Made by a program: the position numbers and the translations under genes | The notes under the pieces: generated by a model | Told to the model about the DNA's origin: nothing | Database searches by the model: none | What the model saw: only the letters and a program-made list of their open reading frames with translations | From: a virus | Lineage: Duplodnaviria; Heunggongvirae; Uroviricota; Caudoviricetes | Length of the DNA stretch: 17,376 bases | Virus record (IMG/VR): IMGVR_UViG_2703718846_000005 | Coordinates: 1 to 17,376 of that record | Direction: 5' to 3' (one strand) | In this document: piece by piece, positions 2,956 to 16,793 of the stretch | Numbering within the stretch: the stretch's first letter is position 1 | Layout: every line of letters begins with the position of its first letter

Positions 2956-2973
2956 TGATGGGTATTGTGCTCT

Positions 2974-3459
2974 ATGGCTGAGATTGTTGAAGGAGTGCAT
3001 TACCTTACGGTTGATGATCTTGTTGAAATCAATCGTTCCCTAATTGAATTACAGACGCCAGATGAGCCCGTTGGTGTTCTGAGTCCAGATAACTTAAGTT
3101 CTTCTCAGGCCCGTCCCAGCATGGTTCGATGGTATGAACAGACTAATGACATGTTTGTACTGGCATCGGTATTGATTGAAAGTCTGATTCAGAATCATCC
3201 GTTTGCTAATGCGAACAAACGAACAGCTATGATGGCTGGTTACGTCTTCTTGTTGTTGAATGGCTATGAGTTAACAGCACCAGGCGATGAAATCGTGGAA
3301 ATGGCAGAGGGACTGGCCTGCAAAACCTATACTCGAGAAGATCTCGAGAACTGGTTGTGTTATTGGTCTCGCGCGTATGACAGCCGGGAATTATGTAAAA
3401 CAGGCGCAACTATTGTTTTGTATGAAACTATCAAGCTTAAAATAGAACAGCAAAACTAA
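2974..3459 (+). CDS. doc: Doc (death-on-curing) family toxin, Fic fold
   Basis: Contains HPFANANKRTA, matching the Doc motif HxFx(D/N)(A/G)NKR; size about 160 aa; start could be TTG 2965 or ATG 2974. Confidence 0.8.
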   Translation: MAEIVEGVHYLTVDDLVEINRSLIELQTPDEPVGVLSPDNLSSSQARPSMVRWYEQTNDMFVLASVLIESLIQNHPFANANKRTAMMAGYVFLLLNGYELTAPGDEIVEMAEGLACKTYTREDLENWLCYWSRAYDSRELCKTGATIVLYETIKLKIEQQN

Positions 3460-7080: not shown

Positions 7081-7102
7081 TTGAATTTTGCACTCATTGA
7101 AA

Positions 7103-7131
7103 AAGGCTCGCTCCGGCGGGCCTTTTTCATA
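7103..7131 (+). terminator. Terminator after the AraC-family gene
   Basis: GGCTCGC-tccg-GCGGGCC hairpin (one mismatch) followed by TTTTTC. Confidence 0.5.
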
Positions 7132-7264
7132 TCTGCGCCACGCCCGGCGCACATCAAAAAACCACAGAGCCTTTCAGGGGGGAGCTTACGGGATGGTCAG
7201 TGTGACTTTCTCTGTGGGCTGCTCATCCCGGGGCGAGGCTCACCCACTAAAAGGAAAAGTCACG

Positions 7265-7690
7265 ATGTTTGGTATTTTCAAAAAGAAAACCCGTAAGGCT
7301 ATTACTGAAGTGAAGAAAATGGAGAACCGCGACGCAGTGGAGGCGACCGTCTGGGGCGCGTATTCCATTGCATACGCTGACGACACCTGTGACGCGAAAG
7401 AAATTGCGGTACTGGAGAAAACCATTGCAGCACTTCCTGCCTTTGCGCCGTTCTCCGGTGAGATTGCACAAATGAGTGCAAATATCCGCGCCCGTTATGA
7501 AGCATCACCGCGTTCTGCCAATGCTGAAGCTCTTCGTCAGCTGGCTGATGTTGCAGGTACTGATGATGCAGTTAATGTGCTGTGCCTGTGTCTCGATATT
7601 GCTGACCAGGACGGTATTGGTCCGGATGAAGAAGCACAGCTCAAGAAAATTGCGCAGGCGCTGCAGTTGCCACTGGAGCAGTATCTGTGA
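7265..7690 (+). CDS. TerB-like (tellurite-resistance TerB family) protein
   Basis: ATG 7265 with AAAGGA SD; two TerB-like helical repeats (AYSIAYADDTCDAKEIAVLEKTI and VLCLCLDIADQDGIGPDEEAQLKKIAQAL) resembling TerB as I remember it. Confidence 0.65.
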   Translation: MFGIFKKKTRKAITEVKKMENRDAVEATVWGAYSIAYADDTCDAKEIAVLEKTIAALPAFAPFSGEIAQMSANIRARYEASPRSANAEALRQLADVAGTDDAVNVLCLCLDIADQDGIGPDEEAQLKKIAQALQLPLEQYL

Positions 7691-7852: not shown

Positions 7853-7882
7853 AGCGGGCATTGAAAGCCCGCTGCATTTTTA
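7853..7882 (+). terminator. Terminator of the TerB-like unit, overlapping the stop of the convergent minus-strand gene
   Basis: AGCGGGC-attgaa-GCCCGCT hairpin followed by TTTTTA; the minus-strand side lacks a U-run. Confidence 0.55.
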
Positions 7883-8560
7883 TTGCTGCTGTTCCTTAAT
7901 GCGTTCCGGTAGCACAAATGCCACTTCAAGGAACAGGCGGAGAAACGCCACAAACTCTTTTGCCTGTTCACTACTGGCCTCGAGTTCGTGCACAGCCTCA
8001 TTGCCTTCCATACGGATTCGGTGAGCCCAGTTTCTCATTGATTCCGTCAGTATGCCGTCCTGCCGTGCCAGTTCAATGCGTGACAGCAGATTGCCTTTTT
8101 CGTACCCCAGGGCACGGAGGGCAACCTCGAGGACGCTACGGCAGCCAACAATGATACGCGGGGCGGTTCTGCCGGACCGAACATCCTCCTGCAACTCAGT
8201 GAAGACTGCGCGAATTTTTTCGGGATAGTGGGGGGAGTCATCGGGCAGCCTGAGTTCAGGATAGATTTTGATGCTTCCCTCAAGTGGAGCATTCAGCACC
8301 CAGGCTTTGTTGTTGATGGCTTTTTTCATGTCCACCAGTTCACTGACTGAACATTCGAATGCGATCATTAATGGGTTGTTACATTCTGTGCAAAAGTCTG
8401 TTGAGTATGCTTTTGCTGATGTTATTTCAGAGGTGCGCGGCTGTTGCACGTAAAGCTTGTTTTCTGTAGCCGGGCGCCTGCTGTGGTACTGGGTGACCTC
8501 ATTCAGAGAAATATGAACCTGATGAAGGCAGTACGGGCATCTAATTTTCAGGGAGTACAT
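7880..8560 (-). CDS. Zn-ribbon plus DUF4145-domain protein (226 aa), candidate defence/abortive-infection-type protein
   Basis: N-terminal CPYC...CTEC zinc ribbon; C-terminus ..RSVLEVALRALG..LLSRIELARQDGILTESMRNWAHRIRMEGNEAVHE..AKEFVAFLRLFLEVAF matches the DUF4145 pattern from memory; start at minus ATG 8560-8558 with AAGAGG SD. Confidence 0.65.
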   Translation of the reverse strand: MYSLKIRCPYCLHQVHISLNEVTQYHSRRPATENKLYVQQPRTSEITSAKAYSTDFCTECNNPLMIAFECSVSELVDMKKAINNKAWVLNAPLEGSIKIYPELRLPDDSPHYPEKIRAVFTELQEDVRSGRTAPRIIVGCRSVLEVALRALGYEKGNLLSRIELARQDGILTESMRNWAHRIRMEGNEAVHELEASSEQAKEFVAFLRLFLEVAFVLPERIKEQQQ

Positions 8561-8767
8561 ATGACCTCTTCGACAGAAGTGATAACTGAATTTGAAAATT
8601 GCATAGCAGATTCTGCCATTGATTCTGTAGCAGCGATAGAACGAAGGTTTGCTGCTGCTCAGACCCGGTATGGTCATGATGCAGCCGTCAAGGGGCTGGC
8701 AATGGCGTTTGTTATTGCGGAGAACCGCCGTCGCTTTATTGAAGCGCAAATGACACTAAAGCAATAA
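8561..8767 (+). CDS. Hypothetical small helical protein (68 aa)
   Basis: ATG 8561 with GGGAG SD 5 nt upstream; tandem terminators follow; start codon abuts the divergent DUF4145 gene start (CATATG). Confidence 0.45.
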   Translation: MTSSTEVITEFENCIADSAIDSVAAIERRFAAAQTRYGHDAAVKGLAMAFVIAENRRRFIEAQMTLKQ

Positions 8768-9515: not shown

Positions 9516-9517
9516 GC

Positions 9518-11146: not shown

Positions 11147-11351
11147 CAGACATTACAGCAGCCCTTCAGCGAGGGGCTGCGATAATGTGAGAAATAAAAA
11201 ACCGGTCACAGGGAACAGCCACACAGAACCGGCCGGCGAAGACCGCCAATATCACCCGAGCATCGGTACAACATACTTATGACAATAGACGGTATTGATG
11301 TAAATGCAATGTTATGCATCGACGAAAATAAAAAACCGGCAGGGGAAATCC

Positions 11352-11492
11352 ATGGAAGATTTGCCGGTGGCGAAAGAGGGCCATGTTTTTAACCTTAGTC
11401 GCAGAGTTACGGAGTGCAACTACGAATGCTGCCGGTATATGGCTGAATGGCGTTTCAATGATGTGCATCATGTTATGCGCAAACGAAAGTGA
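11352..11492 (+). CDS. Small Cys-rich ORF (46 aa), doubtful
   Basis: Internal ATG of ORF 11304..11492; weak SD. Confidence 0.2.
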   Translation: MEDLPVAKEGHVFNLSRRVTECNYECCRYMAEWRFNDVHHVMRKRK

Positions 11493-11504
11493 TAATCGCT
11501 CCCG

Positions 11505-11690
11505 TTTTCACGGGTCCTTTCCGGGAGTTGAAACACCGGGGGTCGTAGGACGCGCAAAAACGCGCTATTTATGAAAATTTTCAGGGAACCATGTCCGGTT
11601 TCACTACTGGTTAACTATATGAAAAATATAAAAACAAGCTTTTTGTGAACCGGACATGTACAAAAAACGAACATGCAAACCGGACATGAG
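11505..11690 (+). promoter_or_regulatory. cos site region (cosQ-like, cosN region, cosB with IHF-like A/T tract and three R-like repeats)
   Basis: TTTTCACGGGTCCTTTCCGG and GCTATTTATGAAAATTTTC match the lambda right/left end sequences as I remember them; 10-bp motif ACCGGACATG occurs at 11649-11658 and 11679-11688 and inverted at 11590-11599; lies directly upstream of the Nu1-like gene. Confidence 0.6.
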
Positions 11691-11732
11691 CGGTTTTCTG
11701 ATTGTGAGGTGAGAGTTTTTGCGAGGTGAGTC

Positions 11733-12242
11733 GTGGCTACGCAGACTGAAGTTGCCAGGCATTTGAGTCTGACCGATCGCCAGCTTCGCAGATTGCAGAA
11801 ATTGCCGGGTGCCCCGGTCTCGAATAAACGGGGGCATCATGACTTGGATGCCTGGCGTGATTTTTACATATCGTATCTGAGGAGAAGTAAAAATGATGTG
11901 TCTGATGGTGATAGCGAAGAAGACTATGAAGAAAAATTACTTATCGCCAGATGGAAATTGACTGAAGAACAGGCAATAGCACAGCAATTAAAAAATCAGG
12001 TAACTGAAGGCAGACTTATTGATTCAGGGTTCTGCGTTTTCGCCCTCAGCAAACTGGCGATGGCATTGTCCAGTACGCTTGATTCCATTCCTTTATCCAT
12101 GCAGCGACAGTTCCCGGATTTAACCCCGCGTCATATTGATTATCTGAAAACCCTTATCGCAAAGGGAGCGAATCAGTGTGCGCGGGCAGGGGATAAATTG
12201 CCGGAGTTACTCGATGAATATATCCGAACAACAGTTGAATAA
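11733..12242 (+). CDS. Terminase small subunit (lambda Nu1-like)
   Basis: GTG start with GAGGTGAG SD; ..FCVFALSKLAMALSSTLDSIPLSMQRQFPDLTPRHIDYLK.. closely parallels lambda gpNu1; overlaps the large-subunit start as in lambda. Confidence 0.9.
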   Translation: MATQTEVARHLSLTDRQLRRLQKLPGAPVSNKRGHHDLDAWRDFYISYLRRSKNDVSDGDSEEDYEEKLLIARWKLTEEQAIAQQLKNQVTEGRLIDSGFCVFALSKLAMALSSTLDSIPLSMQRQFPDLTPRHIDYLKTLIAKGANQCARAGDKLPELLDEYIRTTVE

Positions 12243-14574
12243 TATGATGATCGCCGTCACAACCGCATTACAGCCACTAATAAGGGCATTGCCGGTCACG
12301 CCGGTTGAATGGGCTGATCAAAATTATTATCTGCCTAAAGAATCGTCATACGGTGAAGGAGAGTGGAAAACCCTGCCGTTTCAGGTCGCCATTATGAACA
12401 GCATGGGGCACGACAGGATCCGCACTGTTAATCTGATTAAATCGGCGCGTGTGGGTTACACCAAAATGCTGCTGGGCGTGGTCGGGTATTTTATTGAGCA
12501 TAAATCCCGTAACAGCCTGCTCTTCCAGCCGACAGATTCCGCAGCTGAAGATTTTATGAAAGCGCATGTGGAAGCAACGCTCCGGGATGTCCCCAGCCTT
12601 AAAGCGTTATCGCCATGGCTGGGCAGAAAACATCGGGACAACACACTCACCCTGAAGCGTTTTTCCTCCGGCGTGGGGTTCTGGTGCCTGGGGGGGGCCG
12701 CTGCTAAAAACTACCGTGAAAAATCTGTGGATGTGGTCTGCTATGACGAACTCTCCTCGTTTGAACCGGATGTGGAAAAAGAAGGCTCGCCGACGCTGCT
12801 TGGCGATAAACGTATCGAAGGCTCGGTATGGCCTAAATCCATACGCGGCTCAACGCCAAAAATTAAAGGCTCCTGCCAGATTGAGAAAGCGGCGAATGAA
12901 TCTGCGCATTTCATGCGGTTTTATGTCCCTTGCCCTCATTGCGGGGAGGCCCAGTATCTGAAGTTTGGCGATGATGCGACGCCGTTTGGCCTGAAATGGG
13001 AGAAGGGTAAACCCGAAACGGTGTATTACCTGTGTGAACATAATGGCTGTGTGATCCGCCAGTCGGAACTTGACCAGACCGACGGATGCTGGATTTGTGA
13101 CAATACCGGGATGTGGACGCGTGACGGCCTGACATTTTACAGTGCCGGTGATGAGGAAATCCCGCCACCGCGCTCAATTTCGTACCACATCTGGACGGCA
13201 TACAGCCCGTTCACCACCTGGGTACAGATTGTTTATGACTGGCTCGATGCACTGAAGGATCCGAATGGCGTCAAGACGTTCATTAACACCACGCTCGGGG
13301 AGCCCTATGAAGAGGCCGTGGCAGAAAAACTGAGCTTTGAGTTGTTGCTGGAAAAAGTCTGCCACTATGGCGCGCAGGTTCCCCTGCGGGTGGTTTACCT
13401 GACCGCAGGGATAGACTCCCAGAAAGATCGCTATGAAATTTATGTTTGGGGCTGGGCTCCCGGCGAAGAAGCCTTTCTGATTGACAAGCAAATTATCATG
13501 GGGCGACCGGAGGACGAGGACACCCTTAAACGTGTTGATGCGGTGATCCGGAAAAAATACCGCCATGCTGACGGTACTGAAATTTCCATTTCCCGCGTCT
13601 GCTGGGATACCGGTGGTATCGACCAGGACATTGTGTATCAGCGATCCAGAAAACACGGCACTTTTTTTGTGCTTCCCATAAAAGGGGCATCGGTGTATGG
13701 CAAGCCGGTGATCACCATGCCCAAAAAGCGCAACCAGCGTGGTGTGTTTTTGTGTGAGGTGGGCTCCGATACCGTCAAGGAAATGCTGTACGCCCGTTTT
13801 GCCCTGCCGGTGGTTTCTGCCAGTGAAGCAGCTCCGTATACCTTCCGTTTTCCGGATAACCCGGACATTTTTTCGGAAGAAGAGGCGCGTCAAATCGTAG
13901 CGGAAGAACTGGTGGAAAAGGTGGTTAACGGCAGGGTGAAACTGCTGTGGGATAAAAAAGGGCGACGCAACGAAGCCCTCGACTGCCTGGTATATGCTTA
14001 TGCCGCCCTGCGCGTTTCGGTACAGCGGTGGCAACTGGACCTTGAAGCACTGGCGATGGCACGAAAAGATGAGCAGGATGAGGATGATATGAGCATGGAA
14101 GAGATCGCGGCTGCACTGAGTGGAGGATATTCCAGTGCCAGGGCATCCGCCAATGAGTCGTGGCGGTATTTTATGGGAAAACGAAAATTTGTGGCCAGTC
14201 GCCTGGCGTCACAGATGTTTGCCTGCTGGCTGGAGGAAGCCCTTATTCGTGGTGTGATCCGTCCGCCGAAATCCCGTTTCTCATTCTGGGAGGCTCGTTC
14301 CGGGTGGTGCCGTGCCGAGTGGATTGGTGCCGGTCGTATGGCGATTGATGGCCTTAAGGAAGTGCAGGAAGCGGTGATGCGCATTGAAGGCGGCCTGAGT
14401 ACATACGAGAAAGAGCTGGCCCTGATGGGGGATGACTATCAGGAGATTTTCCGCCAGCAGCTACGGGAAACTCAGGAGCGACAGGCTGCCGGTCTTCCGC
14501 GTCCGGTCTGGATAAAGGACGCGTTTCAACAGCAGATCCGACAGACAACGGGAGAAAAAGGCGATGCGCTGTAA
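12214..14574 (+). CDS. Terminase large subunit (lambda gpA-like) fused in frame to the C-terminal part of the portal protein (gpB-like)
   Basis: N-terminus MNISEQQLNN..VEWADQNYYLPKES..GDKRIEGSVWPKSIRGSTPK.. follows lambda gpA for about 637 aa; from about 14128 the frame continues as ..YSSARASANESWRYFMGKRKFVASR..MAIDGLKEVQEAVMRIEGGLSTYEKE.., which matches the lambda portal C-terminus (from memory). Confidence 0.85.
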   Translation: MNISEQQLNNMMIAVTTALQPLIRALPVTPVEWADQNYYLPKESSYGEGEWKTLPFQVAIMNSMGHDRIRTVNLIKSARVGYTKMLLGVVGYFIEHKSRNSLLFQPTDSAAEDFMKAHVEATLRDVPSLKALSPWLGRKHRDNTLTLKRFSSGVGFWCLGGAAAKNYREKSVDVVCYDELSSFEPDVEKEGSPTLLGDKRIEGSVWPKSIRGSTPKIKGSCQIEKAANESAHFMRFYVPCPHCGEAQYLKFGDDATPFGLKWEKGKPETVYYLCEHNGCVIRQSELDQTDGCWICDNTGMWTRDGLTFYSAGDEEIPPPRSISYHIWTAYSPFTTWVQIVYDWLDALKDPNGVKTFINTTLGEPYEEAVAEKLSFELLLEKVCHYGAQVPLRVVYLTAGIDSQKDRYEIYVWGWAPGEEAFLIDKQIIMGRPEDEDTLKRVDAVIRKKYRHADGTEISISRVCWDTGGIDQDIVYQRSRKHGTFFVLPIKGASVYGKPVITMPKKRNQRGVFLCEVGSDTVKEMLYARFALPVVSASEAAPYTFRFPDNPDIFSEEEARQIVAEELVEKVVNGRVKLLWDKKGRRNEALDCLVYAYAALRVSVQRWQLDLEALAMARKDEQDEDDMSMEEIAAALSGGYSSARASANESWRYFMGKRKFVASRLASQMFACWLEEALIRGVIRPPKSRFSFWEARSGWCRAEWIGAGRMAIDGLKEVQEAVMRIEGGLSTYEKELALMGDDYQEIFRQQLRETQERQAAGLPRPVWIKDAFQQQIRQTTGEKGDAL

Positions 14575-15523
14575 TTTATCACATATTGCCGCGATGGCAT
14601 TTAATGAGCCGCTTTTACTGGAACCCGCCTATGCGCGGGTTTTCTTTTGCGCACTGGGTAAGGAGATGGGGGCGGGCAGCCTTGCCGTTCCGCAGCAGGC
14701 CGTTCAGCTTGATGCCGATGGTATGCAGCTGGCGGTTACCGATTATATGACTGGTGGTCCGCGTCCGGTAAAGAGTTACCAGGTGAAAAATGGTATTGCC
14801 ATTCTGCCGGTGAGCGGCACGTTGGTACATAAAATGGGTACCCTGCGGCCATATTCCGGTATGACCGGTTATGACGGTCTGACTGCCCGTCTTAAGTCAG
14901 CGGTGAACGACCCGGATGTACGCGGCATTTTACTGGATATCGACAGTCCGGGTGGTCAGGCTGCCGGGGCGTTTGACTGTGCTGACATGATTTACCGTCT
15001 GCGGGAACAGAAGCCCGTGTGGGCGCTGTGTAATGACATGGCCTGTTCAGCCGCCATGTTGCTGGCGGCGGCCTGTACGCGTCGGCTGGTCACGCAGACG
15101 GCAAAAATTGGTTCGATTGGTGTGATGATGGCGCACACCAGTTACGAGAAACAACTGGCACAGGAAGGCGTGGATATCACGCTGATTTACTCCGGGCAGC
15201 ACAAGGTTGACGGCAACAGTATTCAGGCGTTGCCGACAGGTGTGCGTGCGGATTTTCAGCGCCGTATTGATGAGGCCCGCCGGATGTTTGTCGACAAGGT
15301 GGCGCTTTATACGGGGCTGAGTTCAGAGGCGGTGATGAATACCGAGGCTGCCGTTTATGACGGTCAGGCAGGCATTGATACAGGCCTGGCTGATCAACTG
15401 ATTAATGCTGCAGATGCCGTTGATGTACCATATTATTCTGAAAGCCAGACAGAATACATCCGCAGTGGTCATGAGAACGGTGGCGACAGTGGTGACAGGT
15501 CCGGCAGGAGAATATGCTTTTGA
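14564..15523 (+). CDS. Head maturation protease/scaffold gpC-like (S49 peptidase family), C-terminally truncated at a deletion junction
   Basis: ..HIAAMAFNEPLLLEPAYARVFFCAL..ILPVSGTLV..SGMTGYDGL..GVMMAHTSYEKQLAQEGVDITLIYSGQHKVDGN.. parallels lambda gpC to about aa 290, then diverges into 30 unrelated codons. Confidence 0.75.
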   Translation: MRCNLSHIAAMAFNEPLLLEPAYARVFFCALGKEMGAGSLAVPQQAVQLDADGMQLAVTDYMTGGPRPVKSYQVKNGIAILPVSGTLVHKMGTLRPYSGMTGYDGLTARLKSAVNDPDVRGILLDIDSPGGQAAGAFDCADMIYRLREQKPVWALCNDMACSAAMLLAAACTRRLVTQTAKIGSIGVMMAHTSYEKQLAQEGVDITLIYSGQHKVDGNSIQALPTGVRADFQRRIDEARRMFVDKVALYTGLSSEAVMNTEAAVYDGQAGIDTGLADQLINAADAVDVPYYSESQTEYIRSGHENGGDSGDRSGRRICF

Positions 15524-16793
15524 AGCTCAGACCGGAAAATATGACGTTTATCTTCGGTCGTGTATTGAAAGGGAATACTGTGTCGGTGATATTTCGGTTT
15601 ACCACGATTCAACGCCCGGCACGCTGAATGATTTTCTGACAGCCATCGATGAAGGTGACCTCAAACCCGACGTGGTGAAACGTTTTGAGGAAATGGTGGC
15701 GCAGGCGCAGCAGAGCGCGGAAACGGCAACAGAAAGCGAACGACAGGCAGGGCAACATGCAGACGCTGCCGCCCGGGTAAAAGAAGATGTAAAAAAACTG
15801 GTGGAAGGTGTTCAGCAGAACGCCGACGCGGTTGCGGAGGGTAAACAACAGGCCGAAACTCTGGTCTCACAGGTTGAGGATACCGCCGCAGAGGTCAGGC
15901 AGGATGCTGAAGCCGCGAAAAAGGCCGCATCTGATGCAGAGCATGTCAGGGAGGATATTGACACTGCGTTATCTGCGACACTGAAAACGGCGAATCGCCT
16001 GTCAGAGCTGGCTGATGAAGGTGAAGAGGCTCAGCAGGAATCCCGTGATAATCTTGGACTGAAAAGCGCAGCCACAATGACGCCACAGAGCGACATTCGT
16101 GACCGGACTGAAGGCCGTCTGGCGACACCTGGCGCATTTGGTTTTGGGCATATTTTTTTGCCCGCAGAGCGTATCCGTTTTAACACAGAGGATGATTTTC
16201 TGTCCTGGGTAAGGAATGCGACGCCGGGTGAATATTTTGTTGAGGGTGACAGTAAAATCATATCCGGAGGTGTGTTGTTTAACGGGATGGTCCGCATCCG
16301 GTGGGTTGAGGCACGCAATAATCCACCGGAGCCGCGATATACAGCAAAGGCCATTATTTTCTACGGTATTAATGGCGATGTTTATTACAACCGCTACTGG
16401 ACAACAGGTAATGGTTATCTGACTGGCTGGGAAAATCTGAAGATGACCTCACAGGACATTATCTCTCTTCTGTCCGGTATTGCTCCCGGTACCACGGACG
16501 GCTGGTACGGTGCAGGCAGTCTTGTACTGGCGGCTTATAACGGTAAGGGAGACGCAGACACCGACCGCCGGATAAAACGCGGTTACAGCTATCCGGGGTC
16601 ACGCCTGAGCGCGGTTGAATTTATGTGTCACGGCACGACCGGTAGCGGGGTTGGATATAACGGCAGCGTTTCCGTATATGTGCGGGGTTCTGGTGGTGGT
16701 ATGCCGGGGTCATATCGGGCACTGTCAGGTGACGGGCTCGGGTCTGCCGGGTCAGCCAGTGTCATGATTGGTTTGTTCATACGTATTGCGTAG
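15426..16793 (+). pseudogene. Side tail fibre protein (Stf-like), lacking native N-terminus and start; joined out of frame to gpC remnant
   Basis: ..ILKARQNTSAVV..DISVYHDSTPGTLNDFLTAIDEGD.. matches lambda Stf from about residue 20; Ala/Glu/Gln-rich coiled-coil then C-terminal domain; only fortuitous upstream ATGs (15405) lie in gpC-derived sequence. Confidence 0.65.

Follow-up and report, generated by a model that had tools for sequence, protein, structure and literature searches.

The systems closest to the locus described here are the cos sites of lambda-like phages. In the complex cosB of lambda, 21, phi80 and Gifsy-1, the R2 repeat is oriented opposite to both R3 and R1 (PMC9026076). The lambda R3 repeat spans bp 50-65, and I1, the IHF site, is located between R3 and R2 (PMC4669245, PMC9026076). 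The segment between cosN and cosB, termed I2, is needed together with cosQ and cosN for the termination of packaging (PMC4669245). Furthermore, cohesive-end variability in lambda-like phages was reported at bp 7-12, and nucleases of the lambda family are known to tolerate changes of the cohesive end (PMC4669245).

Based on alignment to these systems and on comparison with related loci, the segment 11505-11690 of the window (i.e., the whole stretch of 17,376 nt that was analyzed) is interpreted as the lambda-type cos site of a lambdoid prophage of the E. coli type, featuring the order cosQ-cosN-I2-R3-I1-R2-R1 directly 5' of the terminase genes; the probability of this reading is estimated at roughly 85%. 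The subsite order is complete and is followed by genes encoding a Nu1-like TerS and a gpA-like TerL (Table 1), corresponding to the families PF07471, PF05876 and PF20454. Sites of this kind are thoroughly known. The predicted cohesive-end sequence and the putative small-terminase sites of the present locus differ from those of lambda.

Table 1. Predicted subsites of the cos region and adjacent terminase genes, with positions referring to the window.
Feature	Position	Strand	Remarks
cosQ, GGGTCCT	11512-11518	+	Identical to lambda 48473-48479, inside an identical 15-bp block (11510-11524)
cosN	11539-11554		Axis of symmetry between 11546 and 11547; 5' cohesive end of 12 nt predicted at 11541-11552; hypervariable core 11543-11549
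I2, CGCTATTTATGAAAATTTTC	11563-11582	+	20/20 identical to lambda bp 23-42
R3, CATGTCCGGTT	11590-11600	+	Exact inverted repeat with R2 and R1; first base at bp 50 from the predicted left end
I1, putative IHF site equivalent, TAACTATATGAAA	11612-11624	+	Homologous by position to lambda TAACTTAATGTTT and to TAACTTTTTGTT, the IHF site annotated in phage 21
R2, inverted copy, top strand AACCGGACATG	11648-11658	-	100% complementary to R3; 47 nt between the arms
Degenerate R-like copy, AAACGAACATG	11665-11675	-	9/11 positions; only partly kept in relatives
R1, second inverted copy	11678-11688	-	Oriented as R2; kept in relatives
TerS, Nu1-like small terminase subunit, 169 aa, GTG start	11733-12242	+	Pfam PF07471, E = 4e-20, aa 49-150
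TerL, gpA-like aa 1-638, fused in frame to portal codons 360-507	12214-14574	+	Pfam GpA_ATPase, GpA_nuclease

Two blocks conserved with lambda frame the cohesive-end region. The first block, TTTTCACGGGTCCTTTCCGG (11505-11524), aligns to lambda without gaps at 17 of 20 positions and includes 15 contiguous bases, ACGGGTCCTTTCCGG (11510-11524), that are the same as in the lambda right end. The second block, GCTATTTATGAAAATTTTC (11564-11582), is identical to lambda bp 24-42 at 19/19 positions, and addition of the preceding C extends the identity to 20/20. A previous interpretation of this DNA, made from the sequence without database searches (hereafter the sequence-only reading), had proposed a lambda-like cos site with a conserved cosQ and had named coincidental similarity of the blocks as an outcome that would speak against it; alignment to the lambda cos region, yielding 15 contiguous and 20/20 identical bases, bears out the proposal. 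The second block had been designated I1 in that reading. Its conservation with lambda was correctly recognized, but the designation was wrong, since the block matches the lambda segment between cosN and cosB (bp 24-42), i.e., I2, whereas I1 sits between R3 and R2. cosQ was kept in all related loci, and I2 was kept in phage 21 as well as in all related loci. The two blocks are separated by 39 nt as compared to 40 nt in lambda, and base-for-base alignment of the intervening region fails; the divergent cohesive-end region described earlier is thus confirmed, at nearly maintained spacing. The distance from cosQ to the predicted top-strand nick is 22 nt (23 nt in lambda).

Within cosN, partial two-fold rotational symmetry was found about the dyad between 11546 and 11547. 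Over 13 variants, this axis reached a symmetry score of 55, whereas other axes scored 12-39. The pair 11544/11549 switches from C-G to A-T with the symmetry kept in 12/13 variants, and one variant represents a perfect 10-bp palindrome about the same axis. In relatives that combine the same TerS with the lambda cosN, R3 is located at bp 50 and I2 at bp 23; transferred to the window, bp 1 falls on position 11541. Moreover, bridging variants combine the lambda left half over 11541-11546 with the right half of the window, namely ACCACG followed by GGGCGGCAGACG and CGCAGATTTTCA and, in L120, GCC followed by GGGCGGACGACG and CGCA. Based on dyad symmetry, spacing and bridging intermediates, 5'-GGTCGTAGGACG (11541-11552) is predicted as the cohesive end, provided that the enzyme shares the 12-bp stagger of its homologue. 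The homologous end in the intact prophage of Escherichia coli CEA224S, located at 1.09-1.12 Mb of NZ_CP166080, would be a 12-nt 5' overhang GGTCATAGCACG, equivalent to window positions 11541-11552.

Nicking of the same cos site in another register, giving the cohesive end GGGGTCGTAGGA (11539-11550), is an unlikely alternative to the register at 11541-11552, even though flanking CG and CGCG as well as a leading GGG, common to lambda and cdtI-type sites, would then align with lambda (CG, GGG... and CGCG over ACG, GGGCGGCGACCT and CGCG) and the variable positions would fall at bp 5-11, closer to the reported bp 7-12 (PMC4669245). Its axis between 11544 and 11545 scores 36 as compared to 55 for the axis between 11546 and 11547, and it entails a 2-bp shift of cosN versus I2 and R3 when measured against same-TerS relatives in which cosN is that of lambda. 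In the bridging variants (ACCACG, GGGCGGCAGACG, CGCAG.. and L120), moreover, the lambda GGGCGG comes to lie over 11541-11546. The register suggested by motif similarity is accordingly weaker than the one derived from spacing and dyad symmetry.

With the anchors located outside cosN, sequence variation is concentrated in the 7-bp core 11543-11549 between conserved flanks. At least 17 core variants were counted in approximately 37 contigs (within L093-L178) at 11543-11549 and homologous positions. The 69 lambda-type cosN sites associated with the same TerS feature essentially one end, GGGCGGCGACCT, and one single-base variant.

Downstream of I2, the cosB region is built from an 11-bp repeat unit, CATGTCCGGTT, of which the R3 and R1 copies share 12 bp. 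As reported in the sequence-only reading, the 10-mer ACCGGACATG occurs exactly at 11649 and 11679 on the plus strand and inverted at 11590 on the minus strand. These are the only three exact copies on both strands of the 17,376 bp, where the chance expectation for an exact 10-mer is ~0.03 (by arithmetic); one site with a single mismatch is located at 9517. Three exact R copies with I1 between R3 and R2 correspond to the composition of a complex cosB. R2 is opposite to R3, yet R1 is oriented as R2, so that R2 is not opposite to both of its partners. The lambda layout R3-I1-R2-R1 proposed earlier is therefore mirrored in its order, but not in the orientation of R1. Co-orientation of R2 and R1 was also observed in L118 and L122, which possess their own repeat sequence. 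Furthermore, R3 is ~3 bp nearer to cosN than in lambda and phage 21; together with the flipped R1, this suggests that the nucleoprotein geometry may differ. In approximately 78 IMG/VR loci encoding a TerS of 88-99% identity, R3, I1, R2 and R1 are invariant or nearly so, and the spacers drift. The degenerate fourth copy (11665-11675) is possibly vestigial.

The A/T-rich, IHF-like tract that had previously been noticed between the first two repeats corresponds to the I1 equivalent at 11612-11624. It deviates from the IHF consensus at two positions, and a consensus scan of the window retrieved 122 two-mismatch matches versus 158 expected, which does not discriminate. Assignment of I1 was therefore based on positional homology and on the homologous sites in L118, L119, L120 and L122, all of which match YAANNNNTTGATW perfectly. 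Two small open reading frames overlapping the cos site (11383-11574 on the plus and 11604-11840 on the minus strand) were rejected as spurious.

The TerS gene starts at bp 193 from the predicted end (lambda: 191). Its GTG start codon is preceded by a tandem 12-nt near-duplication, TTGTGAGGTGAG (11702-11713) and TTGCGAGGTGAG (11719-11730), which bears the Shine-Dalgarno sequence. The N-terminal 50 aa of the deduced TerS align to the helix-turn-helix of lambda Nu1 and phage 21 gp1, with R16, Q22, G26 and P28 being invariant. The N-terminus lies outside the Pfam Nu1 model and gave no BLAST alignment to lambda, 21, N15 or phi80; a phmmer search of TerS against the PDB returned noise only, leaving the N-terminal domain without a sequence relative there. 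The domain was modelled as a small winged-HTH-like fold (pLDDT ~82). In a Foldseek search with the full TerS model, it resembled MerR-type and excisionase-type winged HTH domains as well as DNA-binding domains of small terminases, none of these matches being significant (E = 0.27-3, best 0.27; TM-score normalized to the target 0.5-0.65).

Since a scan of representative genomes for TerS gave only four loci, IMG/VR was used. Six TerS variants were compared, including homologues of 60-82% identity originating from Klebsiella, Salmonella, Enterobacter, Citrobacter and E. coli. A recognition helix of the type ..RQ[LI]RRLQ, as present in the window and in the Citrobacter (L121) and Enterobacter (L120) homologues, is accompanied by the repeat (C/G)ATGTCCGGTT, and helices containing RDLQ or RNLQ (L122, L118, L119) are accompanied by CA(C/T)TTCCGGTT. 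Throughout these homologues, the layout R3 (forward)-I1-R2 (inverted) was kept. The covarying TerS residue aligns with R21 of phage 21 gp1 and N21 of lambda Nu1, and the repeat base at bp 56 is G in phage 21 and T in lambda; the pairing of Arg with G and of Asn/Asp with T thus appears to recur across TerS families. Moreover, isolated PhiR12 phages possess the same cosB and a TerS of 87.6% identity in combination with a lambda cosN. Based on the conservation footprint, helix covariation, geometry and the viability of the PhiR12 phages, the repeats R3, R2 and R1 very probably represent TerS sites, as had been suggested for the Nu1-like protein in the sequence-only reading. The tracking of one repeat base by TerS residue 20 in the recognition helix (Arg to G; Asp/Asn to T) provides a simple and testable recognition rule.

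The repeats are situated in the 5' untranslated region of the TerS gene and could in principle serve as operators for a regulator other than TerS, controlling late or terminase genes, or as sites of an Rpp-type hijacker; Rpp proteins of PICIs redirect packaging to alternative cosB sequences (PMC9026076). Such a function is considered highly improbable, since the repeat sequence follows the TerS recognition helix across the six TerS variants and since the repeats agree with the cosB of lambda and phage 21 in their position, their spacing and the inversion of R3 versus R2 around an IHF site. Furthermore, a promoter and terminator scan of 11200-11900 yielded no promoter-like site and nothing within the cos region, and no rpp-like gene is adjacent. 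PICI cos sites are characterized by an rpp neighbor and by the lack of an own terminase; at the present locus, TerS and TerL genes are located downstream and phage lysis genes upstream.

With the repeats interpreted as TerS sites, a packaging mechanism can be proposed in which the binding of TerS and IHF as well as the positions and the 12-nt stagger of the nicks are predicted by homology with lambda and phage 21. A dimer of the winged-HTH N-terminal domains of the Nu1-like TerS would bind the inverted pair R3 and R2, which an IHF-induced bend at I1 would draw together, and R1, perhaps along with the degenerate fourth copy, would supply additional TerS contacts. The TerS complex would then anchor two gpA-like TerL nuclease centers symmetrically on cosN, and these would introduce nicks, spaced by 12 bp, on either side of the 11546|11547 axis, giving the predicted 5' end. 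cosQ, cosN and I2 would act in termination at the downstream cos site.

Regarding the genomic context, holin and endolysin genes are located upstream of cos, and the region represents the late region of a lambdoid prophage. The window segment 11494-14129 is colinear with the intact E. coli CEA224S prophage at 95% identity. Compared to the latter, a deletion of 1335 bp has removed the TerL stop codon, W and the first 359 portal codons, resulting in the TerL(1-638)-portal(360-507) fusion. In addition, the gene of the S49 head protease is interrupted at 15426, where a tail-fibre gene (PF08400; open reading frame region 14564-16793) directly follows. The TerL-portal fusion and the deletion of capsid and tail genes render this prophage defective and unable to make virions. 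Given the loss of virion genes, its cos site could act only with a helper phage of matching TerS/TerL specificity. Further upstream, the segment 7157-8767, positioned between the genes for an AraC-type regulator and the holin, is absent from the CEA224S prophage; it adjoins a TerB-like open reading frame (7088-7690), contains a minus-strand DUF4145 open reading frame (7880-8749) and probably represents accessory cargo. A Fic/DOC open reading frame was found at 2965-3459.

In the complete E. coli genomes, the window-type cosQ-cosN-I2 module was detected in 111 of 5426 genomes at 193 places, nearly all of them devoid of an overlapping annotated feature. Among INPHARED phage records, window-type cosN was found only in the partial SerU-LTIIb (L005, KU052038) and in no other isolate; the presumed activity of the class is therefore deduced from intact-looking prophages only. 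In the SerU-LTIIb record, the open reading frame annotated as 'NU1-like protein' (1473-1691, within 1473-2158) actually corresponds to cosQ-cosN-I2-cosB. The true Nu1 homologue is the next gene, annotated as terS, which is directly followed by a tail-fibre gene, so that SerU-LTIIb constitutes a further truncated prophage with window-type cosN. A different arrangement was observed in L096 (IMGVR_UViG_2531839265_000009), where two window-type cos sites (493-521 on the plus and 1229-1257 on the minus strand) are oppositely oriented, their cosQ sides pointing toward one another across ~700 bp. The minus-strand cos continues into a short N15- or PICI-like cosB and then an HTH open reading frame (MNNKDCFVSQQEIAEHFKVNRTTIRAWTKQG); this double cos may represent two abutting packaging elements.

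The absence of W, half of the portal gene as well as capsid and tail genes from the prophage, and the restriction of this cosN to the partial SerU-LTIIb among the records of the phage collection, would be in line with mutational decay of cosN in a dead prophage, i.e., an inert fossil without a cutting specificity of its own. This explanation is very doubtful in view of the distribution of the class, which occurs with conserved flanks in the 111 complete E. coli genomes and in dozens of IMG/VR contigs, including prophages of 40-48 kb with intact head modules. Moreover, the close relatives L013, L014 and L098 have the same cos, identical in L013 and L014, and lack the deletions, variation is limited to the 7-bp core with dyad symmetry preserved, and a single TerL nuclease lineage strictly accompanies the cosN class. 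Judging from these comparisons, the divergent cosN represents a lineage and not decay.

The linkage to TerL was observed directly: in ~20 contigs with window-type cosN and TerL in reach, all nuclease domains were 95.5-100% identical to that of the window. The 55 TerL proteins encoded beside lambda- or cdtI-type cosN share ~72-78% identity with the window in the nuclease domain and 32-36% in the C-terminal tail, whereas the N-terminal part (80-97%) and the ATPase (~90-96%) are more similar. Between partners of cdtI-type and lambda-type cosN, the TerL nuclease domains are 92-94% identical. Since the cosN class is always accompanied by a distinct TerL nuclease domain, a nicking specificity differing from that of lambda, as considered in the sequence-only reading, is plausible, even though tolerance of altered cohesive ends is known for enzymes of this family (PMC4669245).

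In contrast to this linkage with TerL, the association with cosB is variable. In IMG/VR, window-type cosN is joined to at least five cosB types, namely that of the window, the genuine phage-21 type (e.g., in L109 and L113), GATCCGTTCTTCTTC, CACTTCCGGTT and GGTTGTTGT. The window-type TerS/cosB, in turn, is mostly joined to lambda cosN (69 loci) or cdtI-type cosN (six loci). Since both modules were found in mixed pairings, cosQ-cosN-I2 and cosB/TerS reassort; the conserved I2 block is the obvious place for their junction.

Sequence anatomy and its conservation, along with repeat/TerS-helix covariation and the linkage of cosN type to TerL nuclease type, are direct observations. A more far-reaching proposal, which is speculative in its entirety and rated as rather improbable, is that window-type cosN constitutes a second cohesive-end class in lambda-like phages, read by its own TerL nuclease lineage and reassorting independently of cosB/TerS specificity. 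Evolution of its 7-bp core would be diversifying, or at least free of constraint, with the dyad kept, and the end sequence would act as a compatibility barrier among co-resident lambdoid phages, helpers and hijackers. The cosB/TerS pair and the cosN class add two more natural specificity classes to the best-studied viral packaging system. The pairing of a cosN core that varies freely with a distinct nuclease domain bears on the question of how much sequence a gpA-type nuclease reads, and the mixed pairings document natural reassortment of cosQ-cosN-I2 versus cosB-TerS DNA-binding modules at I2. Furthermore, cos ends become predictable for ~2% of complete E. coli genomes, in which the site is presently unannotated. 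No description of the cosB class, the cosN class or the PhiR12 phages was found in the literature searched; coverage of subscription-journal work from the Feiss laboratory was thin, and an earlier description is possible.

Compared to lambda, the cos site of the window shows the same subsite order, an identical cosQ heptamer, the I2 identity of 20/20, an R3 starting at bp 50 and an R3-R2 center distance of 58 bp (59 bp in lambda and phage 21) around the homologous I1; the C-terminal part of TerS and TerL are homologous to the gpNu1/gpA terminase. In contrast, the predicted end, in its predicted register, matches that of lambda at 6/12 positions, with differences at bp 3, at bp 6 and in the right half. 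The repeat CATGTCCGGTT replaces the lambda R sequence CGTTTCCTTTCT, and R1 is co-oriented with R2 at a distance of 30 bp, whereas it is opposite in lambda at 42 bp. The TerS DNA-binding domain, which cannot be aligned to that of lambda by BLAST, has a wing shorter by 5 aa and an 8-aa deletion, and the nuclease domain of TerL shares 62% identity with gpA.

Phage 21 provides the nearest known R core, C(A/G)TGTCGG as compared to CATGTCCGG in the window. Both sites have the I2-to-R3 linker TTCAGGGAA in common and carry R3/R2 inverted around I1 at the same spacing. In both families, moreover, Arg at the helix position equivalent to gp1 R21 would pair with G at the fourth repeat base. However, the window repeat deviates from the phage 21 R consensus CATGTCGGnCC, the target of the gp1 DNA-binding domain, by one extra, inserted C and by another 3' half (GGTT versus GnCC in 21). 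Phage 21 also differs in the orientation of R1, which is flipped in the window, and in possessing the lambda cohesive end, and its gp1 DNA-binding domain is unrelated at the BLAST level, with tblastn alignment starting only from aa 64.

Finally, phages of the N15/Monarch class likewise feature a lambda-like cos with a TerS specificity of their own, Monarch having a three-R cosB and an IHF site, and their cohesive ends differ from that of lambda at two positions only (PMC4669245). Phage cdtI, the record of which begins at the presumed cos end, and related prophages carry the cohesive-end variant GGGCGGGAGCG(T/G), which is the one joined to the window TerS/cosB family in the six IMG/VR loci. The cdtI TerL nuclease remains close to the partners of lambda cosN (92-94% identity), whereas the nuclease of the window class is separated from these at 72-78%.
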